A stretch of 64,000 nucleotides of DNA from Candidatus Adlerbacteria bacterium (GTDB lineage Bacteria; Patescibacteriota; Minisyncoccia; Phycocordibacterales; SBAW01). The stretch is taken from assembly GCA_028286685.1 (NCBI GenBank), contig JAQBRA010000002.1, positions 65,073 to 129,072 on the forward strand, given 5' to 3'. The notes beneath the pieces were generated by a model. That model did no database searches and was not told where the DNA came from. It was given only the letters and a program-made list of their open reading frames with translations. Position numbers and translations under genes: made by a program. Positions 11,161-47,611 of the stretch are shown in pieces. Within the stretch, counting starts at the first letter, position 1. Every line of letters begins with the position of its first letter.

Positions 11161-11180
11161 GAAAAGTAAGTAGCGGATAA

Positions 11181-12664: not shown

Positions 12665-12739
12665 CGCCCCCACTGTACCACAATCACGCCAGAGGAATGC
12701 ATTCATATATCATTCATTCCCCTGCCTGCATACTCGACA

Positions 12740-12766
12740 CATATGAGCACGAAGACGTCTCATATG
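12740..12766. promoter_or_regulatory. 8-bp-arm palindrome (CATATGAG-N11-CTCATATG) in the divergent yibEF / DUF892 promoter region
   Basis: Seen in the sequence. It is a candidate operator, possibly for Zur. Confidence 0.25.
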
Positions 12767-12820
12767 TCCGTCGCTCGCTCGGAACCAAAGCCGCGCTTTT
12801 ATTCACTCACTCGCTAGGAC

Positions 12821-13411
12821 ATGGCTACCAAAAAATCAAAACCCAAGGCAAAAACGAAGGCGTCTGCCAGCAGCAAGAAATACGGCACCCTGCACGAGCT
12901 CCTGATACTAAAGCTCCAGAGCCTCTATGACATAGAGCAGGAACTGACCAAGGCGCTCCCCAAGCTCGCCAAAGCGGCAACCAGCTACGAGCTGCGCGAG
13001 GCCTTTGAGATGCACCTGCGCGAGACAGAGGTGCAGGTACGGCGCCTGGAGGAGGCCATGCAGCTTTTGGACGTTAACCCCAGGAAAGAAAAGGTTGCCG
13101 GGATCCGCGGCATTGCAGAGGACGGCAGCTGGGTTGCAGGCCACGTAACTCCGGAGGCGCGCGATGCGGCGCTCATTGCCGCGGCGCAGTATGCCGAGCA
13201 CTACGAGATAGCCGGATACACTTCCGCGCGCGAGTGGGCGGCCATGATGGACCACCAGGGCGTTACCGATCTTCTGGACGCGACGCTTATCGAGGAAAAG
13301 AACGCCAGCAGCAAGCTGGCTGAGCTGGCGCACAATGGCATAAACCAGCGCGCCGGCGGCATCCCCATGGAAGACGCACCGGTTGAAGAGGAAGAGATAG
13401 CACTGATGTAG
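12821..13411 (+). CDS. ferritin-like DUF892 (YciE/YciF family) protein with a lysine-rich N-terminus
   Basis: LQSLYDIEQELTKALPKLAKAATSYELREAFEMHLRETEVQVRRLEE matches the DUF892 signature. Confidence 0.6.
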   Translation: MATKKSKPKAKTKASASSKKYGTLHELLILKLQSLYDIEQELTKALPKLAKAATSYELREAFEMHLRETEVQVRRLEEAMQLLDVNPRKEKVAGIRGIAEDGSWVAGHVTPEARDAALIAAAQYAEHYEIAGYTSAREWAAMMDHQGVTDLLDATLIEEKNASSKLAELAHNGINQRAGGIPMEDAPVEEEEIALM

Positions 13412-21830: not shown

Positions 21831-21838
21831 CAGTAAGC

Positions 21839-22495
21839 ATGTTCCAGCTTGAAAAAGAGATGATTCCGGTGCTCAAAAGGGATCTATCGAGGATCTTTGG
21901 TGCAGTTCACGCTGCCGAAGAGTTCGTAAGCGGGAACGGTCGTCCAGATTTAGTATTTGCTCGTTTCACAAGCGAGACGTCCTCACGAGGCGCACTTGAT
22001 TACGAGACCCTCCACCTGCTCGTAAGACATTTAAATAAAGAAGGGCGCGTGTACCATGTGGACGAAGTGCTTGGAATTGACCTGCAAAACAGAAAGCGGG
22101 TACATGGCATACTCGATGTGTTGAGCAACTATGGCTTTGTGGAGTACCAAGACGACACCCATTTCATCGTCCGGAGGAAGTACCAACCAGTGGCAGACGA
22201 ATTTGTTTCGATAGAGGCAAAATTAAGTGACTGGAAGTCTGGTGTCAGTCAGGCCATAAGATACAAGTCTTTCTCTAACAGCACGTACCTTGCCATTTCC
22301 GAAGAATATTTAGACCGTGTAGATAGGCAAACCTTGCGCGCCAGCGGCGTTGGGCTTATTAGCGTATCAAGGGAGAATGCTTCGCTTATTTTAAAGGCAA
22401 GAACAAGTAAACCTAAAAGTATGGTATCCAACTACTACCTTACTGAACGCCTCGTTGACACAGTAAACAGTTCTCGAGCTAGTGCAATAGTTTAA
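21839..22495 (+). CDS. hypothetical protein with a PD-(D/E)xK-like motif set and a possible winged-helix tail
   Basis: GRPDLVFARF...VSIEAKLSDWKSGVSQAIRY resembles restriction-endonuclease-fold D...ExK...Q spacing. It lies just after the kinase gene. Confidence 0.35.
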   Translation: MFQLEKEMIPVLKRDLSRIFGAVHAAEEFVSGNGRPDLVFARFTSETSSRGALDYETLHLLVRHLNKEGRVYHVDEVLGIDLQNRKRVHGILDVLSNYGFVEYQDDTHFIVRRKYQPVADEFVSIEAKLSDWKSGVSQAIRYKSFSNSTYLAISEEYLDRVDRQTLRASGVGLISVSRENASLILKARTSKPKSMVSNYYLTERLVDTVNSSRASAIV

Positions 22496-22596
22496 GCTTT
22501 TTTGCGTATCATTTTGTGGTCAGTAAGGAAACCTATTCCCAAGGCGACAAGTCATCCGAAACGGCGCATGTAAAGAGAACAGGGAGTGCTTCTTGA

Positions 22597-22935
22597 TTAT
22601 TTCAATGTCTCGCAAGCAAGACCGTCTTTGTCCGCGTCGAGACGGTGAGGGTCAGAGCTAGGGCCGCCATTTGCAATAAAGAAGGCTTGCGCTTGTGCAT
22701 GCGTAGCAAAGTCAGGGCAGTTTTTGTCGACAAAGCCCGATTTAGCTGCAGTCTTGGCGACAGTCTTTGTAACTACCTTTGCCTCAGTTTTAACCGCAGG
22801 CTTGCTGTGGCAGTGGTAGTTTCCTGTTTTGCTCTCGGTATGGCAGCCTTTTGCGTCGGTGCGGCCGGGGGAAGCCAACGCCACCGCCGGAGCGATGGAA
22901 ATGGCGAGTACTAAACCGGCGAGCAGGGTGCGCAT
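22597..22935 (-). CDS. excalibur calcium-binding domain protein (secreted)
   Basis: Signal peptide and a C-terminal DADKDGLACE motif. Confidence 0.5.
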   Translation of the reverse strand: MRTLLAGLVLAISIAPAVALASPGRTDAKGCHTESKTGNYHCHSKPAVKTEAKVVTKTVAKTAAKSGFVDKNCPDFATHAQAQAFFIANGGPSSDPHRLDADKDGLACETLK

Positions 22936-22936
22936 A

Positions 22937-23152
22937 TTAGCCAATGGTGAAAGCAATAACGAGTGCAGCACCAAAGACGACCGCTGCCATAACGATTGCT
23001 ACAGCCATATTGCCCTGCCTAAGCTCCTCCCACTCGTTAATAGGGGTAATGAAGGAGAACAATTTAACCAAAATACCAAGGGAAATTGCCATCGAGATGG
23101 CGCCAGTAATAGCCCAGCCGAACGTTATAAAATACTGTGTAAATATGTCCAT
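22937..23152 (-). CDS. DUF350-like small membrane protein
   Basis: Two TM helices flanking NEWEELRQGNMAVAI. Confidence 0.4.
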   Translation of the reverse strand: MDIFTQYFITFGWAITGAISMAISLGILVKLFSFITPINEWEELRQGNMAVAIVMAAVVFGAALVIAFTIG

Positions 23153-23206
23153 GGCCCCAGAGTAGCAAATGTGGCGGATTTAGCTACCTACTTAAACTAA
23201 TATTGA

Positions 23207-23235
23207 CATAATAAACTTATGTATGTAATGTATTC
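23207..23235 (+). promoter_or_regulatory. sigma70-like promoter (TTGACA-N17-TAATGT) heading an ORF-poor stretch
   Basis: Seen in the sequence. Confidence 0.35.
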
Positions 23236-23702
23236 GCTGGCTGTTCCCTTTCGTCGGTTTGTCTAGTTGAGCCCCGAAAGGGGTTTCAGCTGCAATATCG
23301 ATGGAGGTATAAGATGGACGTTGTTCAATGGTTCTGTAGTAGCAGGAGTAATATGGCTGTTTGGTTGTGTAGATTCCTTGGGTGCGAGGTAAAGCATAGC
23401 AATCCCTCTCCCGTGGTTATACCACCCCTACCAGTTCCTCTTGTTACAAGACCACTGCCAAGCTCGACTTGTCTCAAGTCGTACTGCAGATGCAACCCCC
23501 ACCTTTGGATTTTTCATCTGGTCATGCAGCATCCTGGGATTAATACTCCTGGCATCCGTCGCAAGATGGGCTGCTACTGCACAGATAGAATTATTCAAGG
23601 AATCTTAGTCGACCTACGGACACAAGGGTATGTACGTATGCACGGCTACGGCCGATGGTCTACGTACTGGCCCAATGCCGTTCTGGTCGACAAATAGCCA
23701 AA

Positions 23703-23737
23703 CCGCGCGCTGCAAGGCGCGCGGTTTTTATTGTTTT
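23703..23737. terminator. hairpin terminator (CCGCGCGC-tgcaag-GCGCGCGG + T-run)
   Basis: It ends the plus-strand noncoding stretch and abuts the stop codon of the minus-strand DUF2726 gene. Confidence 0.5.
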
Positions 23738-24261
23738 AGAACCAATTTCTTTTCTACCTCCCCTTTTATAGCTTCCTTATCCAACTTATCGGCTCTTAAG
23801 TGCAAAATGGATACGCCAGCATCAGCCATCATGCTATCTACGAGGTCGTCCCTATCCATCCGACGAGGGATAGAGTGGCTGCCGCCATCTAGTTCTATAA
23901 CTAGTTGAGGCGCCGCACGCTCTTTGTCGCAGAGCAAAAAGTCGACCGATTTCCTATCTATCCGGCTTCTCAGCCTCATCCGCTCGCGGTAATCAAAGTC
24001 CTTGTTAGGCTCGATAAAATGAGTAAAATTGACCTGGGCAAATATATAAAACCTGTCGCCATACAGCTCAAGCAAAATCTTGTACATCTCAGCCTCAGTC
24101 TTGGTATCGAAAATTGAGGCCTTCTTATTAAAATATTTAACAGCCTCTTCTTTGCTTTGTATGAGCAAGGCTAAAGCAACCAATCCAACAAGAAGCACTG
24201 CGGTAATTGCCCAAACCCACCAAGGGATATGAGGCAACCCAAGTAATTCAAAAATGGACAT
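23728..24261 (-). CDS. DUF2726 (nuclease-related, restriction-endonuclease-like fold) protein with an N-terminal TM
   Basis: KSVDFLLCDKERAAPQLVIELDGGSHSIPRRMDRDDLVDSMMADAGVSILHLRADKL matches the DUF2726 core. Confidence 0.55.
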   Translation of the reverse strand: MSIFELLGLPHIPWWVWAITAVLLVGLVALALLIQSKEEAVKYFNKKASIFDTKTEAEMYKILLELYGDRFYIFAQVNFTHFIEPNKDFDYRERMRLRSRIDRKSVDFLLCDKERAAPQLVIELDGGSHSIPRRMDRDDLVDSMMADAGVSILHLRADKLDKEAIKGEVEKKLVLKQ

Positions 24262-24262
24262 A

Positions 24263-24484
24263 CTACTTAGCTAAAGGGCCATTATGAGTGGGCGCCTCTG
24301 TAGTCTTCTTTGAGACTATCGGGATATCTTTGCGAGTGTTTTCATCTATCTGCTCAAGCAAACTTACTATCCTATTTGTTTTCCAGTACCAAGTGAGCAA
24401 CTCTCTTACTACAAAAAAGCCTACAAGCACCAAAAAGACGAACAAAAGCGGGTCGGTCCCAAAACTTGGGAGGTTTAGATTCAT
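24263..24484 (-). CDS. small membrane protein
   Basis: One TM helix. Located 1 nt downstream of the DUF2726 gene. Confidence 0.3.
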   Translation of the reverse strand: MNLNLPSFGTDPLLFVFLVLVGFFVVRELLTWYWKTNRIVSLLEQIDENTRKDIPIVSKKTTEAPTHNGPLAK

Positions 24485-24601
24485 GCCACCAGTATATCCC
24501 CGTATGAAGGACTCAATATTACGATGTGCACAGCTACTGATTTAATTACGTAAACAAAAAACCGCCTCACCGAGAAGGTCCCGGTGAGGGGAGGTCTTCT
24601 G

Positions 24602-25216
24602 CTAGTGGGCGGTCAATAACACTCTTCTGCCCGTGCCGAGAATATAGGGACGCGAGATCGGATCGTTGTCCCATTCCTCATTGCGTCGCTCTGCCCTCTC
24701 CTGCACTTCGTCCATGCACATATCAATGAGCCACTGTGGTAAAACGAAGCAGCCATACATGATACGGGTCTCGTCGTAGTACCGAACTTGTCCGTACTCG
24801 ATGGCCCGAATGAGGGTATGAATGAACGCATTGAACGCCCATTCGACGCAGTGGTTATGATCTGGGAGGAGGGGACCTCCGCGCCGATCATGCCCCTTTG
24901 CTACGTCTCTCGCCCAAGCGGCCATATACGATACCAACTGTGCATCGACGGGTACGAAATCTTTAGTGGCAAACGCCTTCTCGATTGCACTGAAGAAAGC
25001 CTTGCCCAGCGGGTCGGGCGGCAACTCCTTAAGGGAGCTTAGGTCCGCAGTTCCGTATTCCTGCACCAAAACATAGTCCCAGAGACGCTTTATGTTAGCT
25101 TCTTCATTATCCCAAAAGCGCATGATGTGCTCTTTTCTCAAACCCCCTTTGTTCGGCAGAGGGTAAAACCGTACTATAGCTTTTTCTATTATATACCAAA
25201 ATATATATTTTGTCAA
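24602..25216 (-). CDS. hypothetical protein
   Basis: The ORF has protein-like composition. I cannot recognise the family. Confidence 0.35.
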   Translation of the reverse strand: MTKYIFWYIIEKAIVRFYPLPNKGGLRKEHIMRFWDNEEANIKRLWDYVLVQEYGTADLSSLKELPPDPLGKAFFSAIEKAFATKDFVPVDAQLVSYMAAWARDVAKGHDRRGGPLLPDHNHCVEWAFNAFIHTLIRAIEYGQVRYYDETRIMYGCFVLPQWLIDMCMDEVQERAERRNEEWDNDPISRPYILGTGRRVLLTAH

Positions 25217-25438
25217 CTAAGACTGTGCCGAAAAAATCTTGGAGGGGCTGGTGTGGCCCGACAAAAGGCGAACATCCGCTAAGGGCAGATTGAGGTGGGC
25301 GGCTACCAGCTCGCGCACGCGATGGTTGGCCAAGTTGCGCTCGGCGGGCTCTTTGACCCAGATTTTAAGCCGCCCCTTGGGCAGCTCTTCGACCAGCTCC
25401 TTTTTGGCCCCCGCCACCACCCGAACGCTTACATACAT
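25217..25438 (-). CDS. DUF167 (YggU/UPF0235) family protein
   Basis: MYVSVRVVAGAKK...LKIWVKEPAERNLANHRV...LLSGHTSPSK. Confidence 0.5.
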   Translation of the reverse strand: MYVSVRVVAGAKKELVEELPKGRLKIWVKEPAERNLANHRVRELVAAHLNLPLADVRLLSGHTSPSKIFSAQS

Positions 25439-25776
25439 ACTTACTTCCTTACTTCCGCTTTCCTCCCGGCCAGCAGACGGGGCACACGCCCGTGCCGCGG
25501 TATTTGTGGCCACGGGTGCACGTGCGCCAGACATTCTTAGTTTTTTTGATCATAAGTATCACATCTCCACTGCCCCAACACTACACCTATTCCCACCCTC
25601 ACGACTTTTTATTCTAGCTTTCTGCAGAAGCCTGGAGTGGATTCGGTAGGCTTTTGCTCTGCCATATGCCCTTATAGTACACCCGACAAGAAGCCTTCAA
25701 GTCCCTCCCTCCTGCATAACAAAATAATAAAAGTGGCCGATCCGAAGCGTCGGAACAGCACAGCAAGGCGAACCAG

Positions 25777-25800
25777 ACGCCCGGGCGTTTTTCTTTTGCC
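25777..25800 (+). terminator. terminator-like hairpin, short member of a three-copy family
   Basis: ACGCCCGGGCGT followed by TTTTCTTTTGCC. Confidence 0.35.
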
Positions 25801-25882
25801 CCTGTCGTACGACAATTGCCAAATAGGCCTATTTATTGTATTTTGCCTGCAGACTAGAGAACAACCACAGAGAGGCTAGCTC

Positions 25883-26479
25883 ATGACAACCCTTGTAGCG
25901 CCCCTTACCGGGGAGAGCTTGGAGACCATCCAGTCGCTCGCGCGGAACGTATTCCTGGATGGCGAATGCTATGCGTTTGCCATCGGGCTCAGCCGGGGCC
26001 TTGGCTGGTCTATGGTCGGGCTTATGGAAGGGCCGGTGATCCGGCACGCTCTGGCCTACAACCCAAAAAAGCCCTCCGGCCTGGGCGTGCTCTACGATGT
26101 GCGCGGCAAGCTGGCTCTAAACGAGCCGGAGCTCGGCAACCCTTTCCACCATCGTCCGCCGTATATACTGCGCGAAGTAACCGAGGACGACCTGCGCGCC
26201 GTGCGACCCGTACACGAGCGCAGCATTGCTATGGCCGGCCGGATGGCAGAGGCCATGTGGCCGCACCTGCCCTGGAAACAGGGCCTGGCCGTCCGCGCCA
26301 AGGCATTTGCCGACGCGCTTGCTGCCCTCAGCCGCGAGCACGGGTTTTGGATACGAAGCCCTTACGACACCATGCGCCCCATCCTTTCGGAAGCGCACGG
26401 CGACGAGCGGGGCTACACGATCCGCATACTCGACGACGGGATGGCGTACACTATCGACCGCAGGCTTACCGACGCATGA
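25883..26479 (+). CDS. hypothetical protein (198 aa)
   Basis: The ORF has balanced composition. The overlapping R-rich frame 25966..26739 was rejected. Confidence 0.4.
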   Translation: MTTLVAPLTGESLETIQSLARNVFLDGECYAFAIGLSRGLGWSMVGLMEGPVIRHALAYNPKKPSGLGVLYDVRGKLALNEPELGNPFHHRPPYILREVTEDDLRAVRPVHERSIAMAGRMAEAMWPHLPWKQGLAVRAKAFADALAALSREHGFWIRSPYDTMRPILSEAHGDERGYTIRILDDGMAYTIDRRLTDA

Positions 26480-37350: not shown

Positions 37351-38283
37351 CTATTTTACGTAGGGCCCGATGGCGCTCCGGATAGAATCACGCAACTTTA
37401 CCAACTCGGGATACTGGTAGAAGAAAAGAATCTTTTGGTCTTTGACAAGAGAGCCGGTCGGCTTTGCGCGAAGAACAAAGTCGGTGAACGCCTCGGCAAT
37501 ATCCTCCTCGGGGCCCGTGGCCGCATAAACCGTCGTAAAACTGTTCTTGTTCTGCGCGTAGTAAAGGTCAGTCGCGCCGGTCGTCGCCGAATCTTTGGCC
37601 GCTTTTTGGGCCGACGCTGTCCAGAACTTCTGTGCAAATGCCGAGAGGTAGGAGTCCGTGAGCGTGCATCCATCCCCATTCGTTGCATACAGGTTTGCCT
37701 TTCTGCACTTGAGTTTGTTGATCTTCTTATAGTCTACTTGCGAAGAGTTAAGGGTGATAAGGTGCGCATATTCGTGGACCAGCGTTATGGAGATGTCGCG
37801 CTTCCATGCTGCATTTGAGAAGTTGATGCCGTTGGTATTGATAGCGAGGCCAAAGGCGGGATTCTTGCTGTTTACGCGCGCAACGAAGCCCAAAACCGGG
37901 CTTGGCAGCTTGTACGTAATGTATTGGCGGATGTTCTTATCAATGAAATCCCAGCCCGCTATGCCGGCAAAAATATCCCACACCTTTTGCTCGTCAGGAT
38001 TCGGCTTGTAGGCGCTCGAATTTTTCTCAAGCTTTTTGTTGAAGACGACGTAATCGGTGACAACGTCGCCGGCATCATATTGGATATCCTCCATGGCCTC
38101 GACGCCAATAGGCACGTTTAGCGAAGAGCGGTCAACACTCCAAGTTTGGGGCGCGGCAGCGGGATTAGGGATAGTAGAAAGGGGTGTCGCTTTGCCTGCC
38201 GCGTGGGCAGTTAAATGACTTGGACTTATAACCAGCATGGCAACAACTACCGCAAAATAGGAAAAAAGCCTCCGTCGATTCAT
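37351..38283 (-). CDS. secreted HExxH metallopeptidase-like protein
   Basis: Signal peptide and a LVHEYAHLITLN zincin motif. This marks the start of a visibly AT-richer stretch. Confidence 0.45.
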   Translation of the reverse strand: MNRRRLFSYFAVVVAMLVISPSHLTAHAAGKATPLSTIPNPAAAPQTWSVDRSSLNVPIGVEAMEDIQYDAGDVVTDYVVFNKKLEKNSSAYKPNPDEQKVWDIFAGIAGWDFIDKNIRQYITYKLPSPVLGFVARVNSKNPAFGLAINTNGINFSNAAWKRDISITLVHEYAHLITLNSSQVDYKKINKLKCRKANLYATNGDGCTLTDSYLSAFAQKFWTASAQKAAKDSATTGATDLYYAQNKNSFTTVYAATGPEEDIAEAFTDFVLRAKPTGSLVKDQKILFFYQYPELVKLRDSIRSAIGPYVK

Positions 38284-38664
38284 AAAATAATAATTAAAAG
38301 TAATTCCTTCTATTGTGGAGCTTCCACCTGAAGGATTGGTGAAATATAAGCAAAAAACCCGAATGGTACCTGACAGTATTTTCCTCCCCTCTCCCCTTTT
38401 CTTAAACAATTTTAATACAAAGCGACAGTTTCTATTAGATTATGTACAGAACGTAACTTACTGGGACGACAAGATTGAACTTCGCGGATTTGTACCAGTG
38501 AAGTCAAAAGCTTACGCAGATGGAGAAAGTCGAAGTGAATTAGGAAAACTGGAATTCCGCATAAGTGGACATCTTCCAAGGATTGGAGGGATAAAGATTG
38601 AAAGAAGACCTTACGCCTCAACAGAGGTTATAGGCAGGAAGGAGTATGATCTATTGGCTTCCAG

Positions 38665-38886
38665 TTAAACTAATTTGAGAAAAAGAAGTAGGAACCATAC
38701 TGAAAATATTAGGCTACTTAGAACCAATCTAAAGGAATGTATTTGGAACAAGAAATCCCTGTCCTCCTTTTCAAAGTTTAAGAAAACTTTTGTACGAACC
38801 TTATAAGAGAACGGCTCGGAAACCATCATTCCAATACTTGTAAGAAACACTAGAAAACTAAACGCAGATAAGATTAACCAAATCAT
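38665..38886 (-). CDS. small membrane protein (candidate orphan immunity protein)
   Basis: Two TM helices. AT-rich, in a tandem series downstream of the RHS toxin. Confidence 0.35.
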   Translation of the reverse strand: MIWLILSAFSFLVFLTSIGMMVSEPFSYKVRTKVFLNFEKEDRDFLFQIHSFRLVLSSLIFSVWFLLLFLKLV

Positions 38887-38938
38887 AAATATTTTTAATT
38901 ATCTATACTTCCCGTCCCTGAATCTAGAGTATTATTAT

Positions 38939-39208
38939 TTATTTTTTGAAAAAATGCTTATACCCCATTCTCAAAGTCACGACAAACAAAACAGAAAGAA
39001 TAATAATTCCCACCCAAGATCTTACCAAGTTTACCTCTGGAGGAAAATAATTTGATAAACGAGTCAAGATAGCGAAAAAGAGAGCAACTAGTGCACCTAT
39101 GCTTAAAAAGAGGTCTTCTTTATCGTTACTTTTATTCCAGTTATAGAGGCAAAAAATAACAAGAGCAACACCGAGTGCTGGAAAGATTAAAACTTCAAAG
39201 TGTAGCAT
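38939..39208 (-). CDS. small membrane protein (candidate orphan immunity protein)
   Basis: Two to three TM helices. Confidence 0.35.
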   Translation of the reverse strand: MLHFEVLIFPALGVALVIFCLYNWNKSNDKEDLFLSIGALVALFFAILTRLSNYFPPEVNLVRSWVGIIILSVLFVVTLRMGYKHFFKK

Positions 39209-39221
39209 TTACTTTTTTAAA

Positions 39222-39425
39222 CTACTTATCCGAAGGCGGAGATTTGAGTTTGACTACCAACATCGCTAGAGCGGCAATACCAAAGCAGACTACAAAAATG
39301 GTAATTAGGTCGTGAAAAATATTACTGACCTGGACGAGGGCAATTATTGTCACAGCGAATACCACCCACCCCTCCCATGAGGCCGGGTATAATCCTTTAT
39401 CTTTTTTGAACCAGTATTTATTCAT
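39222..39425 (-). CDS. small membrane protein (candidate orphan immunity protein)
   Basis: Two TM helices. Confidence 0.35.
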   Translation of the reverse strand: MNKYWFKKDKGLYPASWEGWVVFAVTIIALVQVSNIFHDLITIFVVCFGIAALAMLVVKLKSPPSDK

Positions 39426-39436
39426 AAGTAATATAA

Positions 39437-39916
39437 TTACACATTTCCAGCAAGTTTTTCAGCATAACCACTAAGTTCTATATTAGGATTTAGTTGTTTA
39501 AGATCTTTAACAAGTCTACCAAGAGTTTTTTCTGAAAACAGAGTGATGCGAAACTCAATATACTTTATACTCCCATCCTGGTCTTTATAAAAAATATAAA
39601 GGGACCGAAATGATCCTTTAGCTGTTTTATAAGTTGCCTGGTCATTGATTTCAGTTATTGAGTCGATATTAACGGTTCTTCGATAAAAAAAGAGATAGAC
39701 GTATGTGAGAGTGTTGTTTGTGATAGATGCATATGAATAACAAGTGGTAATAAGTAGAAAAAAGGCCCAAAATATTACCCAAATTAATAGCCCCTTAATA
39801 GCGACATCCGTACCAAGATCAGGGTTACGGTTTAGATATAAAGTAAATGCCATTAATACACCAGCACTAACTCCAATCATAAGAATACTCTTCCAGTCAG
39901 TAGTATACTTTTTCAT
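39437..39916 (-). CDS. membrane protein directly downstream of the RHS toxin gene and overlapping it (candidate cognate immunity protein)
   Basis: Three to four TM helices. Its start overlaps the toxin stop codon by 4 nt. Confidence 0.45.
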   Translation of the reverse strand: MKKYTTDWKSILMIGVSAGVLMAFTLYLNRNPDLGTDVAIKGLLIWVIFWAFFLLITTCYSYASITNNTLTYVYLFFYRRTVNIDSITEINDQATYKTAKGSFRSLYIFYKDQDGSIKYIEFRITLFSEKTLGRLVKDLKQLNPNIELSGYAEKLAGNV

Positions 39917-42900
39917 TTTTTATCATTCTTAACCTTAAAAGCACTCATGAGATTTTGGACTGCCTTTGCTTGTGTTGAATTTGTAGGAGCAAAAGCATTT
40001 CGAATACTCGAAAAGAGTGAAGCTTGAGACTGTCCACCTTGGTACATTTGACCTGCATTACTTTGAACATTTCCATAGTAAGTATCAATACCTACTCCAA
40101 AGGCAGCCTCTTGCGCATACCGTTGCGCATGAGCACCAGTATAATATGTACTTCCTAGAACTTTAGTGGCTTGTACTCCTCTTACCTGAGGGAGACCTTT
40201 TAGATAACCAGCCGTCAACCCAGTGACTGCTCCATCAGCGACAGCTTGCACTGCACCCTCTGGAGTAATGGTGCCATTTTGCAAGTAGTTTTCTCCGAGG
40301 GAAATGGTGGAAGCTGTTCCTGCGCCCGCCCACGGACTTACAGCTGTAGCAAGTCCTATAACTGCTCCCTTACTCATTGATGTGCCGTATGCTCCAAAGC
40401 CACTAAATTGGCCTGATTGGAGATCAGAAATACCTTGGTATATACCTCCTCCAATACCACCCAGCACGAAACCAGCCGCGAGCACTTGAGGGATAAATCG
40501 TCCAGATGGATCCTTATTAAGGATCGGATTATTCCCTGCGTAAGAATAACTATTCTGTAGTTGAGGATTGATAAGCGCAGCCTTTCCGTCCTGAGTCTGC
40601 CCTATCTCCCAGAAGACTGGGTCTTGGCTCAAGAACTGACCACGTCCCCCGTCGTAATAACGTGCATTTAGATAATTGAGCCCCGAGAGCTCGTCCGCCA
40701 CCTCCCCTATATACTCCCGCTGGCTCACGTCCGTGCCAGTTTCTGCCTGTACCGAGCCGAAGGGATAGTAGGCCAGGGATTGGACCGGAGCGCCACTCTG
40801 GTCGGTTACCACATGGGTAGAGCCCAGGTGGTCGGTGTGTATGTACCGGGTAGTGCCCCCTGCCCCGCCGGAGATGCTTATCAGGCGTATATCGTCGTAG
40901 TAGACCGTGCCGGTGGAGTCCTTTTGGAACACGAAGCCCGTGGTCATCGCGCCTGCGATGCCCAAGTCCGCTAGCGGGATGTCTATGCTGTACCAGGTGT
41001 TGGCCGCTATGGTGCCGCCGGAGACGTAGGAAGAGAGCTGGACCGTGTTGGCCGGAGAACCGCCTGAGTTGTAGCCGATGACTTGCAGGAGCGGCGAGGC
41101 GGAGGTGGAGCGGAACGCCAGGCGCAGGTGAGTAGAACCTACCGTGCTTATGCCCGCATTATGAAGATATAGCCCGCCCCACGCTTCGGTGTACGTAACC
41201 GCTATGGAATTAGAGCCTGCGTATGTCGGACTGGTATTGCTGAAGTTCTGCGTCGAGCCCCACGACCAGTTGTCCCATGAGGTGGTATCGGCGTAGATAG
41301 TCTGGGTTGTGGAAGCCGTGGGCGACCCAACGCTCGCGGATGATTTTTCCACGGTCGACACCAGCATGCCGGCGGCGTAGATGTTCTTAGTAGTAGTGCC
41401 CGCCCCGCCCGCCATGGCGCTATAGAGCCTGTTGGGGAAATAGGTGGTCTTTGAGCCCTCAACCAGCTTGATGCGGCTGCTTTCATGATCGTAGGAGTAC
41501 GTGGAGGTTGCCGTGCCGCTGCCCGCGCTTGCGAGGCGGTTGGCATAGTCCCATGCGTAGGCAAATCCGCCGCCCGAGGCAAGGTTGCCGTTGTTGTCGT
41601 AGGCATAGGTAGAGCTGGCGATGCTTGTAGGCGCGTGAGGATTAGCGTAGCCAGTGCCCGCGTACGCATACGCTCCCACGTCGGACTTGGCAATAATATT
41701 TCCCAAGATGTCGTAGTTGTACGTCTGCGTATAGCCGCCTGAGGCCGTGGACGTGCTTGTCGAGCCTACGGACCAGAACGAGGACGGCGACGACATGTTG
41801 TTGTAACGAGTCGCCAAATAATTGTCGCTGCGGGCCGCACTATGCACGCGTATTTCGTCCAAGCGCCCATCAAGGCGCTCGCCGCCCGCGTAGTCGGCAC
41901 CAAAGCGCAGGACGTCGTTGGAGTTAAAGGTAGTGCCGGGCGTATCGGCCGTATAAGTATTGGCGCTCGAGCCGTTGGCGCGCACCGACGCCTCTGCAGT
42001 GGTGCTGGCCGGGTCGTGGCGCAGCGCGACATAGTACCAGGTGCCGGTTGCCATAGAGCCCGCATAGGTGCCCGCGTACGAAGTGCTGCTGGCAGCGCTT
42101 ATCCATTCGCCATCGAGCCGGTTAGTCGGGCTCGATACGTATGAGGAGTAGGAGCGCCAAGGCGAGGCAGTGTGCTTCTTGCTGATGAGCCGGGCATTTT
42201 CGCCACGCGCGCTCGGCGTCGCATCCATATATACCCAACCCTCAAGCGTCATGGACGCTCCTTCAAAATTGCTGCTATCGGGCACGTCGATAGTGTCGTC
42301 GACACCATCGAAGTTGGCAGCGGCGCCGAACTTGCCGGTAGTGGTACCTATGGCTGACGCCACATAGTTTGAATACATGGTGCCGTTATGGCTTCCCGAG
42401 GTTGAGTCTTTGATAGCTCCCCCGGTAGCGCTATTTTCCTCCAAATGCCAGACGCCCTCAGTATCGGAGTCATACACCTCCCGAGCTCCATAAGTGTTGC
42501 CCGCAGAATAGCAGTTAGCATCCGGGTTGCCGTAATAGACGTAGTATTGCGCAGACGAACTCGCAGAAAGGGCGTTGCCGGTCGAGAAGTGGAGCTGCCC
42601 TGCTCCGGCACCATAGGACACCAGGTCTATGGGCAGCTCAGTCGTGCCGTCTTGCTTGGTTACGCGGATATCGCAGCCATTGGCTTTGACCCCGGTATGG
42701 AAGCTTATAGGCAACAGCGACAAGTCGAGATAGACGTCTTTAGTATCTTCCAGCACCTTGGTAGAGCTGGCTGCCACCGGCACGCGATAATCCCAGTTCG
42801 GGTCGTACCAATCGGAAGAGGGGCCGACTGCATACTGTGCCTGAGCCAGACGGTACAAATCATCGTAATCGTAACTTGCTGTTTTTGGCGCTGTAGAGCT

Positions 42901-45900
42901 TGCCAGGTCGGAAATCTCCACAATATTGCCGACAGGGTCGTAGGTATAGTTGAAGTCCTGGAGGGTAAGGCCGGAGGAGTTTTTTGCCTGGACTCGCGAA
43001 AGTCGGTAGAGCGCAGCGGCATTATAGGTGCTGGTAGAGACATCGCCGTTGGCGTATGCCACGACCGCAGGCTTGCCCGTAGGGGCGTAGTCAATCCGCG
43101 TTACAACGCCCGCAAAAGAAGGCTCTCCGCTTTCTTTCTTCTGTACGGCATCAACAAGCCCGGCAGCATTATAGAAGTACGCAACCTGCGCCTGGTCGGG
43201 ATACGTCACGAGCGTCTGATTGCCTTGGCGGTCATACTCATAGGCAGTTGCAAATGCGGTCGTAGTACCGACCAAGGTTGAAGTAGCAGCCCTAACAAGG
43301 CCCGCAGGATTATATGCATATTGGACAAGAGAGTTGGTGGAGCTTGCCGTGCACAGCCTCCCTACCCCGTCTTGGCAGGAGTCATAGACGTAGGACACCT
43401 CCGTACCCGCCTGACCCGTGTAATTTTCTGATACGGGACGATTGAGCACATCGTAGGAATACTGGACCGTTTGGCCCTTTGCATCGATTTTTTGGGTAAG
43501 ATTGCCCGCCGCATCATAGCTATAAGTGGTCGAGCCGAATGAGGCATCTGCCGGAGCATGGAGATCTCCCGCAGAAGTGCGCCGGCCGAGGCCGTCATAC
43601 GCAAAGCTGCGCACATTGCCCGCAGCGTCGGTCAGACTCACAAGACTGCCCGTAAGATCCCACGCATAGGTAGTGGTATACGGCGTCCCCGAAAGATACT
43701 CAACAACGCTTATAAGATTGCCGCGCGCGTCTTTTGTATATTCTTTTGCCTTATCATTAGCGTCCGTAGTGGTAGTCTTCCATTGGTCATAGGCATTGGT
43801 GGTCGTGCCCACGGCAGTCCCAACCCCCACCGCGCGCTGGAGCGGATCATACAGGTAGTTCGTGTAGAGCGTCCCAATCGAAGTGGCAGAGGAACGCGAG
43901 GAGCCCGAGGCAAAGTACGGCAAGCTTTCGGAAGACATGAGGCCCCTCCGGTCATACTTCCAATCCCTTACTGCAAACGTGCCCGCAACCTCGGCTTGCG
44001 AGCGCTCCTGGAATTTGCGGTTTAAGCCGTCAAAATACGTATAGCGCGAGGTGGTTGTAGCAGCGTTTAAGTACCTAGTTTCCTCTACGCTGGTGGAGCC
44101 CGGCGTGCTGCTGGCGCTGTACGCATAGGCAGTCGTAGTAGCGAGCGTACCAGTTAAAGGATCGGGCTCTTGCACAGCGAGCACCCTGTCCAGACCATCG
44201 TAAGCTTTTACATGCAGGCGCCCGTTGGGATCGGCAATCTGGCGCACCTGGCCGGAAGAATAGTCGTACAAATACCCGGTTGCCTGACTAAGCGCGTTGG
44301 TGGTAGTCGCTGGATACAGGTTGAACGCATCATAGGCGTAGGCTGTAAGATTTGACTTGGCGTCACGCTCCTGAGTTACCAGGCCATAGGTACCGTACAC
44401 CTTGGTGGTAGACGCGTAGGCAGAAGCGGCAATCCAATCCTCCTTTTTAGTCAGATTACCTTTGACCAGACTGCCAAGCGTCTGGTTGTCATAGTAATAG
44501 CGCGCCTCTTTTATTTTGGCTCCGCTCTGATTATGCGTAAGCTCGCTTGACGGAAGACCGACAAGAGTCGAGCTCGCCGCGTAGGAGATAGTCGTTGAGG
44601 CAAGATCGCTGCCAGTATCGCTAAAAGTGCCGTCGCCCGAGCCGGTTACCTCGCCCCAGTCGATCTTTTGAACCAGGTTACCATTGGTATTGTTGTAGGC
44701 ATACGAGACAGCCTTGTCTTTATGGTCGGAATCACCGTCATACTCCTGCTCGAGTGCCTGTGTTGTTTTGACGAACCTAGCTTCCCCGCCACGGTCATGA
44801 GTCTCCCACTTATTTATATTTGACTTAAACAGGTCGCCGGAACTATCGGAAACATCCGTACGGAATACTTTGCCTATCTTTGAGCGGTCGTCAGAGTATT
44901 CTCCCAAAGAAGATTCTGAGGCATTGCCTTGGTGATAGCGGGTAACGACCGTATCCCCTACTGCATCAGTCTTGGTTATAGACCCAAAGCCCGCAATGCG
45001 CCTATCAAACGGATTGTCGAAGTAAAAGTCACCGTCTGCGTACTCGAACGTATCGGTACTGGTCGCAGAGAGACCGTCACTGATTTCAACCTTCTCAAGG
45101 GTCGTTAGTGTCGCTGGAAGCGAGGGATTGAGCAACTCATCGCTGTCATCCCTGTATTGCGCACTGCCTTTGTAGGCCACACTAATAGTGCCGCCTGTCT
45201 GATTAATCACCCGGGAGAGCAAGTCGGGTTCCTGGCCCTGGGATATAAATTGACTGTCCTGCTCCCAGGAATAGAAATGGGGCTGGCCCCAACCATACGC
45301 GACAAAATCGGCAATACCGTCGCCATTAAGGTCTGCAAACCGCACGCCGCCTTCTTGTCCGCTGTGCCGCAGCGCGACAGGCGCCCACCTGGAGTGATCT
45401 TGAATAAACCCAATGCCAGTATTGAGGTAAACGCTATTTCCCAGCCAATGAACAACCGGAGGGGTTGGATACGGCCCCACCTGAGCCTCGCTTGAGACCA
45501 CATCGGGCAAGCTATCTCCATTTATATCCACCAGGCGCGCAGATTGGCCGCCTATGTCTCCCGGCAACGACCACGCAGGATCAGATGACCAGCCTGAGCC
45601 GGTATTGATATAAACGGAACCTTCTTGTGTTAGGTCGGCAAGATTGTCGCCATTGATGTCGGCCACCTGGCCGCGACTATTACCGTTATGGTTACTGTTT
45701 CCAAAGAGTATAGTTGTTGTCGGGAACGCCCACCCAACAGCCGTGGTCCAACCAGCCCCCGTATTGAGATATATGCTTTGCGAGTATGTTGTAGCCCCAG
45801 TGAAGGCGTTTATATTTGCGAAAGAGCGCAACACGTCAATCAATCCGTCGCCATCTATATCGCCGAAGCGCACGCCATTATCATACAAGCCCTCGAATCT

Positions 45901-47520
45901 TATACTTAAAGGCAACGACCATGCACTTGCCGACCAATTGCTACCGGTATTGAGATATACATTCGTGTCGCATATGAAATCAGGCAGGAGGTCTCCGTTG
46001 ACGTCCGCTAGCCGGCCTCCCCCATCGAATAAATAATTGTTAGATTCGAGATAGGTGAACGTGCACGGAGGAGTCCAGCCCGAGTCGAGAGTCCAACTCT
46101 CGCCGTTATTTATGTATACATGGCGATAAACGTCATAACCATTCCTACCGTTCCACGCATCATAAGCTTGCACCTCATCTGCAAGCCCGTCGCCATTAAT
46201 ATCGACAACATTGACGCCCTTATCCCAGCCATCTCCGACGAAACCAGTAGCCATAGGCTGGGTCCACGTAGTCGTGGCCCACGTTTTAGAAGACTCCGTA
46301 TAACCAAAGGCTGTCTGCGGCAAAGCGATCGGCGTAGAACTTCCTTCGGCCTGGCCTGCTTCTGTAACACTGGCTAATATAAGCCTGGAATCGTTGTCCC
46401 CAGCACGATAAGTAAGAGTATAAGCATGAACAGTATCGCCACTCACCTTGGCTGTGATGGCGTCTATCTTGTATTTGGTCTTTACCGTAAAACCGGTAGC
46501 AGTAGAAGTGGCTGTGGAAGTGGCACGCAAACTTTTGGCAAAGTCGACTGAAAATATGCCTGTACTAGAGCCGCTGCCCGTATAGGAAATTGATGCCGGA
46601 TAGATTTGGCCGGAATCCTTAGAATAAGAGTAGATTATCGTGTTGCCGTTAGAGTCCGTTACCTGCTGCAGCATCCATTTAAATATTCTCCCAGAGTTAC
46701 CTGGATCATCCTGCCTCCCGCTGGTTGAAGTGCCGAAAAGATACGTTTTGCCGGTTTTATCCGTTACAGTCCAAGCATTGCCACTGAATGAATAAGACAA
46801 ATTTGAACCATCATCATCGCGCGCCACAAACAAGGTCGAAGTTGAAGTTGTAGCCAACTCGCCCGACATCGAGGAGGAGAAATAGACCGGCGACGTCGTC
46901 GCGTACAGCGTACCGAGGCCTTTTTTGTTTATGCGCTCAATATACGGGATAGGCATATCCCAACCATATCCGTAAAAATCGTCGTCATGGTGCGATTGGG
47001 ACGAGTACACAAGCTTAAGATCCGGCTCCATGCCACTGCGCCCTGGCGGCACCTTCAGCGGGACCTGGTAGAGATACGCTCCCGTATATGATTCGGATGA
47101 GCTGTCCGGCACGCTCCCCAGCGCAGCACTTTGCCTGATAAATGAAGGCAGATTGTCGTCAACGGCGCTTGCCGAACTAAGCGACTGGGGTTCAGGAGTG
47201 AGGGAGTCCATTGACTCAACCGTGGAGGGTTCTGTAAAACTTTCCTCAAGGACTGATTCCTGCTCTGTCGGCGAACTAACAGGAACTGCCGCCGGTTCAA
47301 TAATCGGCCCTTCTTCTATGGGAAATATTGGGTCAGGCAGCGGACTTGTCTGAAATTCAGGTATTTGAACTTGCGAAGAATTCGGGGGGATAATTTCTGC
47401 CTCTTGGGCATACACTTGCACTAAAGGCGTGCCTGCCAAAGACAAAACTAAGCCAAAAGCAATTGCGCGAACCAAAAACTGACCGGGAGTTGCGCGGAAA
47501 GAAATGCCTCCTCTGCTCAT
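39913..47520 (-). CDS. RHS/YD-repeat polymorphic toxin with N-terminal FG-GAP-like repeats, a LamG-like domain and a glycine-rich C-terminal toxin domain
   Basis: Signal peptide; repeated D(I/V)NGDGL(A/P)D motifs; many YD repeats such as YAYDAFN and YSYDAAGNL; the RHS core end YSYAGNNPILNKDPSGRF; and a ~190-aa tail with GGIGGGIYQG and VIGLATAV glycine-zipper-like segments. Confidence 0.85.
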   Translation of the reverse strand: MSRGGISFRATPGQFLVRAIAFGLVLSLAGTPLVQVYAQEAEIIPPNSSQVQIPEFQTSPLPDPIFPIEEGPIIEPAAVPVSSPTEQESVLEESFTEPSTVESMDSLTPEPQSLSSASAVDDNLPSFIRQSAALGSVPDSSSESYTGAYLYQVPLKVPPGRSGMEPDLKLVYSSQSHHDDDFYGYGWDMPIPYIERINKKGLGTLYATTSPVYFSSSMSGELATTSTSTLFVARDDDGSNLSYSFSGNAWTVTDKTGKTYLFGTSTSGRQDDPGNSGRIFKWMLQQVTDSNGNTIIYSYSKDSGQIYPASISYTGSGSSTGIFSVDFAKSLRATSTATSTATGFTVKTKYKIDAITAKVSGDTVHAYTLTYRAGDNDSRLILASVTEAGQAEGSSTPIALPQTAFGYTESSKTWATTTWTQPMATGFVGDGWDKGVNVVDINGDGLADEVQAYDAWNGRNGYDVYRHVYINNGESWTLDSGWTPPCTFTYLESNNYLFDGGGRLADVNGDLLPDFICDTNVYLNTGSNWSASAWSLPLSIRFEGLYDNGVRFGDIDGDGLIDVLRSFANINAFTGATTYSQSIYLNTGAGWTTAVGWAFPTTTILFGNSNHNGNSRGQVADINGDNLADLTQEGSVYINTGSGWSSDPAWSLPGDIGGQSARLVDINGDSLPDVVSSEAQVGPYPTPPVVHWLGNSVYLNTGIGFIQDHSRWAPVALRHSGQEGGVRFADLNGDGIADFVAYGWGQPHFYSWEQDSQFISQGQEPDLLSRVINQTGGTISVAYKGSAQYRDDSDELLNPSLPATLTTLEKVEISDGLSATSTDTFEYADGDFYFDNPFDRRIAGFGSITKTDAVGDTVVTRYHQGNASESSLGEYSDDRSKIGKVFRTDVSDSSGDLFKSNINKWETHDRGGEARFVKTTQALEQEYDGDSDHKDKAVSYAYNNTNGNLVQKIDWGEVTGSGDGTFSDTGSDLASTTISYAASSTLVGLPSSELTHNQSGAKIKEARYYYDNQTLGSLVKGNLTKKEDWIAASAYASTTKVYGTYGLVTQERDAKSNLTAYAYDAFNLYPATTTNALSQATGYLYDYSSGQVRQIADPNGRLHVKAYDGLDRVLAVQEPDPLTGTLATTTAYAYSASSTPGSTSVEETRYLNAATTTSRYTYFDGLNRKFQERSQAEVAGTFAVRDWKYDRRGLMSSESLPYFASGSSRSSATSIGTLYTNYLYDPLQRAVGVGTAVGTTTNAYDQWKTTTTDANDKAKEYTKDARGNLISVVEYLSGTPYTTTYAWDLTGSLVSLTDAAGNVRSFAYDGLGRRTSAGDLHAPADASFGSTTYSYDAAGNLTQKIDAKGQTVQYSYDVLNRPVSENYTGQAGTEVSYVYDSCQDGVGRLCTASSTNSLVQYAYNPAGLVRAATSTLVGTTTAFATAYEYDRQGNQTLVTYPDQAQVAYFYNAAGLVDAVQKKESGEPSFAGVVTRIDYAPTGKPAVVAYANGDVSTSTYNAAALYRLSRVQAKNSSGLTLQDFNYTYDPVGNIVEISDLASSTAPKTASYDYDDLYRLAQAQYAVGPSSDWYDPNWDYRVPVAASSTKVLEDTKDVYLDLSLLPISFHTGVKANGCDIRVTKQDGTTELPIDLVSYGAGAGQLHFSTGNALSASSSAQYYVYYGNPDANCYSAGNTYGAREVYDSDTEGVWHLEENSATGGAIKDSTSGSHNGTMYSNYVASAIGTTTGKFGAAANFDGVDDTIDVPDSSNFEGASMTLEGWVYMDATPSARGENARLISKKHTASPWRSYSSYVSSPTNRLDGEWISAASSTSYAGTYAGSMATGTWYYVALRHDPASTTAEASVRANGSSANTYTADTPGTTFNSNDVLRFGADYAGGERLDGRLDEIRVHSAARSDNYLATRYNNMSSPSSFWSVGSTSTSTASGGYTQTYNYDILGNIIAKSDVGAYAYAGTGYANPHAPTSIASSTYAYDNNGNLASGGGFAYAWDYANRLASAGSGTATSTYSYDHESSRIKLVEGSKTTYFPNRLYSAMAGGAGTTTKNIYAAGMLVSTVEKSSASVGSPTASTTQTIYADTTSWDNWSWGSTQNFSNTSPTYAGSNSIAVTYTEAWGGLYLHNAGISTVGSTHLRLAFRSTSASPLLQVIGYNSGGSPANTVQLSSYVSGGTIAANTWYSIDIPLADLGIAGAMTTGFVFQKDSTGTVYYDDIRLISISGGAGGTTRYIHTDHLGSTHVVTDQSGAPVQSLAYYPFGSVQAETGTDVSQREYIGEVADELSGLNYLNARYYDGGRGQFLSQDPVFWEIGQTQDGKAALINPQLQNSYSYAGNNPILNKDPSGRFIPQVLAAGFVLGGIGGGIYQGISDLQSGQFSGFGAYGTSMSKGAVIGLATAVSPWAGAGTASTISLGENYLQNGTITPEGAVQAVADGAVTGLTAGYLKGLPQVRGVQATKVLGSTYYTGAHAQRYAQEAAFGVGIDTYYGNVQSNAGQMYQGGQSQASLFSSIRNAFAPTNSTQAKAVQNLMSAFKVKNDKK

Positions 47521-47611
47521 AAAATATTAATGAAATAAATAATACCCCAATCATGAGGTATTAATATGAAGTTTTTATGAAGTTGTCAGAAAAACCTTTA
47601 AATACGGCTGC

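Follow-up and report, generated by a model that had tools for sequence, protein, structure and literature searches.

Background

Among the RHS polymorphic toxins, proteins of the WapA type (Bacillus subtilis WapA/WapI) are comparable in plan to the protein described here: they join a Sec signal to YD/RHS repeats and to a polymorphic C-terminal toxin with an adjacent immunity gene, and they have no dedicated injection machine. They differ in lacking a TcB-like propeller half and in their tips, which are tRNases neutralised by soluble immunity proteins. In the BC part of the Tc toxins (TcdB2-TccC3, YenB-YenC2), an SpvB domain, an FG-GAP propeller, a TcdB middle domain and an RHS shell encapsulate a C-terminal hypervariable region after aspartyl autoproteolysis. 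The single characterised example of a membrane-active RHS tip is the C-terminal fragment (CT) of Tse5 (PA2684) of Pseudomonas aeruginosa, an Rhs-encapsulated pore former of 149 aa and about 15.6 kDa; the Tse5 shell is a chaperone for this integral-membrane toxin and can, unaided, attach to bilayers and hand the CT over to them; its immunity protein, Tsi5, contains two transmembrane (TM) helices (PMC9637101, PMC10684867). Here we consider a 64-kb window, that is the whole stretch of DNA analysed, from a metagenome-assembled genome (MAG) of Candidatus Adlerbacteria (Patescibacteria, also called the candidate phyla radiation, CPR), in which a 2535-aa RHS protein (MDB5225183.1) ends in a 193-aa tail and is followed by a 159-aa membrane protein (MDB5225182.1), both records carrying the label "hypothetical protein".

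Judging from sequence and gene order, the tail and the 159-aa protein are very probably a toxin and its immunity partner. We further propose, with a probability of roughly 60% and by analogy and structural modelling, that the tail is an RHS-encapsulated tip that would insert into membranes and depolarise them as a pore, countered by a membrane-anchored immunity protein. The kind of system is already known (an RHS polymorphic toxin with membrane immunity); the tip family and the immunity family are new to the catalogues. In the catalogues and literature searched we found no prior description of either family, the sole related mention being that of a Saccharibacteria genome for which an RHS/YD protein of 2487 aa, next to an immunity gene, is noted in passing (PMC6031116).

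A new family of RHS tips

The first-pass annotation of the window, made from the letters and translations, had described an unrecognised tail of about 190 residues rich in small amino acids, and the 193 residues that follow DPSGRF, with 16% glycine and 14% alanine, bear out this description. The absence of a known toxin family also held: the tail gave no match in Pfam 2025 even at E=10 and none in NCBIfam 2026, neither its sequence nor its profile had a catalogued relative among the PDB chain sequences, and nothing was found by tblastn in 72,556 plasmids or in 50,697 phage records. When 23 members of the family were compared with Pfam (E<=1), no family was recovered either, save four scattered single-member chance matches.

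Relatives were found only in very large collections. A word-indexed search of 5.8 billion proteins gave one, on the contig referred to below as L001, and an exhaustive phmmer search of 1.84 billion cluster representatives gave 17 matches, including the window's own protein and one spurious match. In every true phmmer match of sufficient length, the homologous region comes straight after an Rhs core that terminates in DPxG[RKE][FC]. Another 15 proteins emerged from a profile search, whose matches bear the source labels "RHS repeat-associated", Patescibacteria or Candidatus Paceibacterota. The family comprises about 30 sequences in at least three subtypes, and its true relatives come almost all from Patescibacteria. 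A narrower tail alignment found only two loci among genome contigs and a metagenome scan three; the tail family is rare. One candidate relative, P0011 (2728 aa, 15 matched stretches, E 8e-21), was rejected because it is a repeat protein in which weak stretches add up.

Subtype A, to which the window belongs, reads LTAGYLKGLPQVRGVQAT..YYTGAHAQRY in its conserved part, subtype B GLTGGLLEG..PKVPGRIPNLF..FFTGSHMTN and subtype C GGLTFG..VPGVPGRLPNFGT.AFFFGKHTQQSA. All three sit on Rhs cores, and the tail occurs both on full-length proteins (as in L004) and as orphan tips beside transposases (as in L001 and L007). These observations show the tail to be a swappable, mobile module of RHS polymorphic toxins, in line with the first-pass classification of the protein.

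After about tail residue 145 the family members carry C-terminal extensions of at least four types, which are short, of low complexity and often Lys-terminated, and some of which are common to different subtypes. The extension SLVQQLQSLVSSLKSLVSSLSKK occurs in P0005 (subtype A) and in P0017, YSFSGG.N.YGESY occurs in P0008 (A) and in P0014, and the extension of the window protein, LFSSIRNAFAPTNSTQAKAVQNLMSAF, resembles FSSLVQVGNAFSPKNSAQSQALQNVFNAF of P0025 (subtype C). P0013 (218 aa) is a chimeric gene call in which an N-terminal multi-TM segment stands in frame with the C-terminal half of a subtype-A tail nearly identical to that of the Ryanbacteria locus L004 (below); recombination seems to have left it behind when a tip was displaced.

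The tail is accompanied by one family of membrane proteins

The start of the 159-aa gene overlaps the toxin stop by 4 nt (ATGA), which confirms the overlap noted at first pass. Six independent loci have a gene homologous to that of the 159-aa protein directly after the tail. We gathered them from the first tail search (L001), from immunity homologues on long contigs and from the tail-profile loci, and they strengthen the earlier proposal that the downstream gene encodes the cognate partner. Besides the window locus itself (Adlerbacteria, with the full-length gene), these are L004 from Ryanbacteria, which encodes a full-length 2848-aa SpvB/FG-GAP/TcdB/RHS protein, L003 from Andersenbacteria and L010 (unlabelled), which hold RHS C-terminal ends cut by the contig end, L007 from Giovannonibacteria, with an orphan tip after an rve transposase, and L001, from a MAG labelled as Alphaproteobacteria, with an orphan tip by transposases. 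By tblastn, the five related loci are 44-59% identical to the window in the tail and 51-58% in the partner, and the partner in L001 shares 51-57% identity with the 159-aa protein. The tails of L004, L007 and L010, which were identified via their immunity genes, match the tail profile with E-values of 1e-61 to 1e-88. A single partner family accompanies all four types of C-terminal extension, and the partner therefore tracks the conserved core of the tail.

On L001 (contig_14525), the region 10001..13200 holds two orphan RHS tips, one of subtype A and one of subtype C, each followed by a two-TM protein and flanked by Transposase_mut and DDE_Tnp_1 genes; the same contig encodes an outer-membrane beta-barrel protein. 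Either the cassette, elsewhere confined to CPR, has here crossed between phyla, or the contig is chimeric or was mis-binned. The 132-aa protein behind its subtype-C tip was considered as a further member of the immunity family and rejected, since it has the same layout but no detectable sequence homology, whereas the 165-aa two-TM protein that follows an orphan subtype-C remnant in L007 is homologous through its PH-like domain (hhalign probability 93%, E 3e-7). At 3103..3988 of L003 and at 2855..3534 of L007 there are short leftovers from the ends of subtype-C tips (...HWVTPSGAVVTWEGQL...), with more two- or three-TM proteins behind them. These are arrays of the kind known from classical rhs loci, in which fragments of displaced tips persist together with the immunity genes that were kept.

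The partner family counts 34 proteins, each about 156-165 aa long and none of them annotated, which come from Adler-, Ryan- and Giovannonibacteria. The first-pass annotation had called the downstream product a multi-TM protein; two TM helices are indeed predicted, but the protein is not polytopic and carries a soluble PH-like domain of about 100 aa. With the family alignment, AlphaFold2 models it at a predicted local distance difference test score (pLDDT) of 85.7, the TM hairpin being followed by six strands (62-123) and a helix cap (129-142). The best Foldseek matches are all of the PH type (Spt16/Pob3, MTMR6 PH-GRAM, CheF and the myosin-1c tail; probability 0.90-0.98), and Pfam bPH_4 matches at 19.0 bits, below its cut-off of 22.9, as it does below threshold in 12 of 31 members. 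From the distribution of Lys and Arg and the positive-inside rule, both termini and the PH-like domain are predicted to be cytoplasmic. Across the six loci the TM hairpin is weakly conserved (24-45% identity), while the C-terminal 100 residues or so are 62-80% identical.

A membrane-based immunity, as first suggested, is thus in keeping with a partner that is membrane-anchored, its protective role being deduced from the pairing. Proteins of B. subtilis with TM and bPH segments, YdbS and YdbT, protect this bacterium against the membrane-active bacteriocin amylocyclicin, and their homologues occur in leaderless-bacteriocin clusters as transport/immunity genes. The 159-aa protein resembles them in having a TM hairpin and then a PH-like domain, although its bPH_4 match stays below the curated cut-off, and because of this precedent a membrane-anchored PH-like protein would be a natural partner for a membrane-active toxin. 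In the literature searched, bPH proteins are not described as immunity partners of RHS toxins.

Architecture of the RHS protein

Every element that the first-pass annotation had named in the 2535-aa protein was matched by the Pfam and NCBIfam scans (Table 1). The at least six FG-GAP-like calcium-binding repeats mentioned there are exactly six in a motif scan for D[IVL][ND]GDxLxD, starting at aa 440, 506, 554, 621, 665 and 730, and the LamG/pentraxin-like insert corresponds to Laminin_G_3 at aa 1738-1899 (E 4.5e-16), preceded by a DUF2341 match that is below the cut-off (E 4e-4). The shell also matches YD_repeat_2x, TIGR01643 (E 2e-11) and NF041261 (RHS_core). Relatives in the PDB are Rhs 7q97, Tse5 8cp6 (E 3.7e-13), whose shell region is detectably homologous to that of the window protein, and TcdB2-TccC3 (E about 1e-11).

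The protein has the build of a Tc toxin BC part, with SpvB, propeller and TcdB middle domain before the RHS shell, in one polypeptide. It differs from the Tc toxins in its predicted Sec signal, in the lack of a TcA-like translocator in the window and in its cargo: the Tc example carries an ADP-ribosyltransferase aimed at eukaryotes, whereas here a hydrophobic helical tip stands beside an immunity gene, which points to an antibacterial logic. The combination of predicted Sec signal, fused TcB-TcC-like cocoon, lectin inserts and CPR genome with no TcA nearby is unusual but not unique, since the Ryanbacteria protein of L004 has the same build. The second insert has no Pfam match; from its sequence it reads like a beta-rich, carbohydrate-binding-like beta-sandwich, and other inserts occupy this site in homologues (Ig_Rha78A_N in L004).

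The 193 residues of the tail come after YSYAGNNPILNKDPSGRF, the junction reading NKDPSGRF followed by IPQ, so that the DPxG cleavage motif of the Rhs core directly precedes the tip; all family members of sufficient length have this junction. By comparison with D1141 and D1164 of Tse5, we infer that Asp2300 (in SQDPVF) and Asp2337 (in KDPSG) are candidate catalytic residues of the autoprotease.

At the other end, the N-terminus MSRGGISFRATPGQFLVRAIAFGLVLSLAGTPLVQVYA followed by QE has the n-h-c layout of a Sec signal. The Sec signal reported at first pass therefore stands as a canonical segment from M1, but it is absent if translation begins at Met104. We favour M1 because the 103 extra codons are open and encode this canonical signal, and because in the Ryanbacteria homologue of L004, too, a signal/TM segment stands at the N-terminus, immediately ahead of the SpvB domain.

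Table 1. Features of the RHS locus, with their positions in the window and their strand; residue numbers refer to the full-length protein or, where so stated, to the tail
Feature	Positions	Strand	Remarks
Whole gene, 2535-aa Sec-signal/TcB-like/RHS protein	39913..47520	-	2535 open codons
Predicted signal peptide, aa 1-38, cleavage between VYA and QE	47407..47520	-	only if M1 is the true start
Pro/Glu/Ser-rich linker after the signal peptide, to about aa 140		-	
SpvB/TcB-like N-terminal shell region, about aa 143-430	46231..47094	-	Pfam SpvB E 2.5e-19, best stretch aa 248-304
FG-GAP beta-propeller, aa 440-738	45286..46227	-	Pfam FG-GAP_3 E 3.3e-14, three stretches
TcdB_toxin_midN, aa 723-856	44953..45354	-	Pfam E 8.9e-13
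RHS/YD-repeat shell, about aa 900-2250, two inserts	40771..44823	-	RHS_repeat E 2e-23 (four stretches)
Insert 1, DUF2341 and Laminin_G_3, aa about 1590-1905	41806..42753	-	candidate surface/receptor-binding module
Insert 2, about 150 aa, Ser/Thr/Gly-rich, aa about 2075-2225, just before the Rhs core	40846..41298	-	
Rhs-associated core, predicted aspartyl autoprotease plug, ends KDPSGR(F)	40498..40770	-	TIGR03696 aa 2251-2340, E 4e-15
Candidate toxin tip (tail), 193 aa, 19.6 kDa, isoelectric point 9.3, Lys-rich C-terminus	39916..40494	-	new family
Tail 1-100, four predicted helices (2-27, 33-52, 54-73, 78-100), Gly/Ala/Ser/Thr-rich	40195..40494	-	AlphaFold2
Tail 88-135, most conserved block, VTGLTAGYLKGLPQVRGVQATKVLGSTYYTGAHAQRYAQEA	40090..40233	-	conservation
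C-terminal extension, tail 146-193, variable, modular, Lys-terminated	39916..40059	-	
Cognate immunity candidate, 159 aa, MDB5225182.1; TM 8-28 and 36-59; PH-like domain aa about 60-145	39437..39916	-	
67-aa two-TM open reading frame (MNKYWFKK...)	39222..39425	-	possible accessory or second immunity gene
89-aa small membrane open reading frame	38939..39208	-	within low-GC island
73-aa small membrane open reading frame	38665..38886	-	within low-GC island

Structure and conservation of the tail

Using an alignment of 23 sequences, AlphaFold2 predicts in the first hundred residues of the tail four helices (H1-H4) of 20-26 residues each, with a pLDDT of 61-91 per 10-residue block; beyond about residue 100 the score is below 50. 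Family-wide, the helices consist of 41-58% Gly, Ala, Ser and Thr and hold one to three charged residues each. Five positions are invariant in the 23 sequences (Y36, G43, G96, G106 and G120) and seven are nearly so (G8, G12, G47, N73, T94, P102 and H122), so that the 12 best-conserved positions comprise seven Gly, one Pro, Y36, N73, T94 and H122, and no acidic or basic residue is invariant among the 23 sequences. The consensus of the most conserved block is LTAGYLKGLPxVxG...[FY][FY]xGxH.

The glycine-zipper character claimed at first pass is only partly retained. Two pairs in the helices, G8xxxG12 and G43xxxG47, and the glycine at 96 are conserved throughout the family (G8 and G12 96%, G43 100%, G47 96%, G96 100%), but the number of zippers is only modestly above what composition gives: strict motifs start at residues 8, 13, 39, 84, 88 and 92 of tail 1-110, six against 2.4 in shuffled sequences (p about 0.04).

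The sole neighbours of tail 1-100 are the inner-membrane proteins NDUFA11, Tim22 and Tim23, which have four TM helices rich in GxxxG (profile-sequence E about 0.6; Foldseek E 0.5-2, probability <=0.85, TM-score 0.3-0.45). In the Tim17/Tim22/Tim23 and NDUFA11 proteins four Gly/Ala-rich helices pack through GxxxG motifs as in the tail; the scores are not significant, and the resemblance is most likely convergent packing of small-residue helices and not homology. No enzymatic signature was found in the tail when its 23 members were compared with Pfam, NCBIfam and the PDB.

A depolarising pore as the favoured mode of action

We favour a pore, in line with the membrane-permeabilising role that the first-pass annotation thought possible, because of the small-residue helices with their conserved GxxxG pairs, the predominance of Gly and Pro among conserved positions, the weak four-TM fold neighbours and the membrane-anchored partner. 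The course of events would be as follows. From its signal peptide, the 2535-aa protein would be exported by Sec and would fold, as in the structures of TcdB2-TccC3 and Rhs, into a closed TcB-TcC-like cocoon made of SpvB, a six-bladed FG-GAP propeller, TcdB_mid and the RHS shell. As in Tse5, RhsA and the Tc toxins, the aspartyl protease of the Rhs core would cleave after DPSGR(F) and the shell would keep the 193-aa tip inside, acting as its chaperone. The inserts on the shell surface, DUF2341-LamG and the second one, probably bind the surface of the target cell, and on contact the tip would pass to the target cytoplasmic membrane, where its four helices could insert and oligomerise via their GxxxG faces. 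At the core of the proposal, the oligomer would be an ion-conducting pore that collapses the membrane potential. In the membrane of the producer, the 159-aa partner, with its TM hairpin and cytoplasmic PH-like domain, would block the insertion or oligomerisation of incoming or escaped toxin.

Tse5/Tsi5 offers the nearest parallel, since it likewise has an Rhs shell, an aspartyl-protease core, a small helical C-terminal fragment with no enzymatic signature (15.6 kDa for Tse5-CT and about 15 kDa for the core of the present 193-aa tip) and a two-TM membrane immunity protein encoded next door. The released Tse5-CT begins with IIPLV by Edman sequencing (PMC9637101), the predicted tip of the window protein with (F)IPQVL, and subtype A as a whole with [IV]PQA[IV]; the shared hydrophobic I-P-x-V start after the Rhs cleavage site may be a coincidence or a requirement of the protease or plug. 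In PDB-sequence searches with the tail and with its profile no Tse5 chain appeared at E<=10, the presence of the CT chain in that set being unconfirmed. Tse5 differs in having a PAAR-like N-terminus and in being fired by a type VI secretion system (T6SS), whereas the window protein has a predicted Sec signal, a TcB-like half with FG-GAP propeller and lectin inserts, its immunity protein has an additional PH-like domain, and no T6SS is evident in the CPR bacterium.

Small helical depolarising domains with GxxxG or glycine-zipper motifs are also found in the CdiA-CT ionophores (EC93 family) and in EsxX, TelE and TspA of the type VII secretion system b (T7SSb), together with the membrane immunity proteins CdiI, ExiCD and TsaI. 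These toxins differ in their scaffolds (CdiA filaments or LXG/T7SS), and no sequence relationship to the tail was detected. EsxX requires soluble cytoplasmic immunity proteins as well; here the RHS shell would shield the producer.

Several results weigh against a pore delivered in this way. No TcA- or T6SS-type delivery machinery is visible within the window, and the route from cocoon to target membrane is therefore conjecture. The enrichment of zippers over composition is marginal in subtype A, where it holds for most members, and absent in B and C. The mean Kyte-Doolittle hydropathy of H1-H4 (-0.2 to 0.9 in the window protein, 0.44-0.66 family-wide) is below classical TM values, the fold matches given above are weak, and most of the best-conserved block is not part of the confidently modelled helices and has a pLDDT below 50. 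Covariation of toxin and immunity protein over the six loci (15 pairs; Spearman 0.04-0.59) has no clear pattern and gives no information either way. Finally, export depends on the choice of start, on which gene calls differ within 47211..47563: NCBI places it at Met104 (2432 aa, no signal peptide) and another pipeline at M1 (2535 aa), and a terminator-like hairpin with a 10-bp stem (47540..47563, minus strand) ends 20 nt upstream of M1, leaving little room for a promoter.

Alternative explanations

It is possible, although we consider it unlikely, that the tip is a membrane-embedded or membrane-associated enzyme acting on a lipid or a lipid-linked envelope precursor (lipid II, undecaprenyl phosphate), like TelC, colicin M or the Lipocone toxins, with H122 and Y36, N73 and T94 as its active site and the helices merely positioning it at the membrane. 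The strongest conservation is indeed in the block that contains LTAGYLKGLP rather than in the zipper helices, and 22 of the 23 sequences, spanning three subtypes, retain His122. Among the tips of RHS and other polymorphic toxins, moreover, there are documented membrane-associated enzymes of four helices whose immunity proteins are TM proteins or lipoproteins (PMC12419801). However, the remaining sequence, P0029, has Gln at the position of the histidine, no acidic residue is invariant, His122 lies after H4, seven of the 12 conserved positions are Gly, and the 23 members match no enzyme family in Pfam, NCBIfam or the PDB. A Lipocone/TelC-like enzyme in particular was compared with the published definition (PMC12419801) and rejected, as the pattern of conserved residues does not fit: the Lipocone signature places His in H2, Glu in H3 and Asp in H4, but H2 of the tail carries Y36, G43 and G47, and N73 ends H3.

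A bipartite tip appears rather less probable again. Its helical half would be an entry or translocation domain, and the effector would be the 101-150 block or the C-terminal extension, directed at a cytoplasmic or membrane-protein target. The modular extensions exchanged between subtypes would suit such an arrangement, and an N-terminal helical entry domain is known from the ionophores of contact-dependent inhibition and from other CdiA-CTs (PMC11630599). The predicted-cytoplasmic PH-like domain of the partner, far better conserved than its TM hairpin, would also fit the recognition of a conserved toxin segment that faces the cytoplasm. Yet the extensions, of about 45-70 aa, low complexity and no matches, are too small for known enzymes, the pairing of one immunity family with four extension types would make the core the part that is neutralised, and the 101-150 block offers about 50 residues with no invariant charged residue.

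A more far-reaching idea, which we regard as very unlikely, is that killing is not the main purpose of the tip and that an episymbiotic CPR cell plants it as a Tim17-like four-helix channel in the membrane of a host or neighbour, by way of a TcA-independent BC cocoon. If this were true, the channel would let that membrane leak ions or metabolites that the reduced-genome bacterium cannot make, and the PH-domain protein would prevent self-insertion. The locus would then be a device for tapping nutrients, assembled from parts of polymorphic toxins, and would give a first molecular access to the ways in which Parcubacteria exploit their partner cells.

Least credible of all is a non-toxin function, in which the protein would be a teneurin-like YD adhesin of the cell surface, the tail would anchor its C-terminus in the membrane or serve as a structural plug, and the partner would be unrelated or would help in assembly. 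Although lectin-like inserts and a Sec signal also occur in adhesins, the tail follows a complete Rhs core with its DPxG cleavage motif, and the orphan tip-plus-partner cassettes by transposases, the replacement of the tail by other subtypes on homologous cores and its location in a low-GC island are hallmarks of polymorphic tips that anchors do not show.

Significance of the locus

If the pore proposal is right, the tail (about 30 sequences, three subtypes) would add a second and unrelated family to Tse5 among membrane-active RHS tips, and its partner (about 34 sequences) a new immunity architecture in which a TM hairpin is joined to a PH-like domain, both families being almost confined to Patescibacteria/CPR. 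A bacterium whose genome is reduced invests heavily in keeping a gene of 7.6 kb. The locus also bears on how an RHS cocoon might release its cargo without TcA or T6SS, as the protein is predicted to be exported by Sec and to form a Tc-like cocoon and has no visible injector. It extends a class and overturns no concept, and it provides a candidate CPR effector whose toxin/immunity pair is small enough for work in E. coli or Bacillus.

Genomic context

The neighbouring genes in the window are of the housekeeping kind (BipA, a MacB/ABC/HlyD transporter, GH18, RhlE and a cupin). No second RHS gene, orphan tip or TcA-sized open reading frame (ORF) was found in the 64 kb, all other ORFs being of 720 aa or less. 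A scan for promoters and terminators gave counts at background level, and operon boundaries are not delimited.

The fraction of G+C, about 0.58 outside the cassette, ranges from 0.55 to 0.61 in the flanking genome and from 0.55 to 0.63 in the 3' portion of the RHS shell. It is about 0.48-0.53 at the junction of Rhs core and tail, and 0.31-0.40 at 38250..40200, a low-GC island of 1.8 kb that takes in the partner gene, three small membrane ORFs (67, 89 and 73 aa) and the final third of the tail. Because such a drop matches the usual footprint of tip/immunity cassettes, it is consistent with a cassette of tip, immunity gene and small membrane ORFs swapped in by recombination at the Rhs core. The 67-aa ORF has a counterpart at the same position in Andersenbacteria (L003), where it forms the beginning of a protein of 292 aa (43% identity, E 2e-16). 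Neither the 89-aa nor the 73-aa ORF recurs in the related loci, and whether they belong to the cassette is uncertain; they may be orphan immunity genes against other membrane toxins.

At the edge of the island, a 352-aa ORF (37351..38409, minus strand) has a signal/TM segment and a HEYAH (HExxH) motif, and gives a weak match to Peptidase_Mx1 (E 0.004) that is under the cut-off. A second region of lower G+C (0.48-0.50) lies at 19770..26000 of the window and encodes a 686-aa Ser/Thr protein kinase, a DUF2726 (DUF559-like) protein and several family-less ORFs, with a DUF2779 protein just upstream (17990..19519); this region may be another acquired island.

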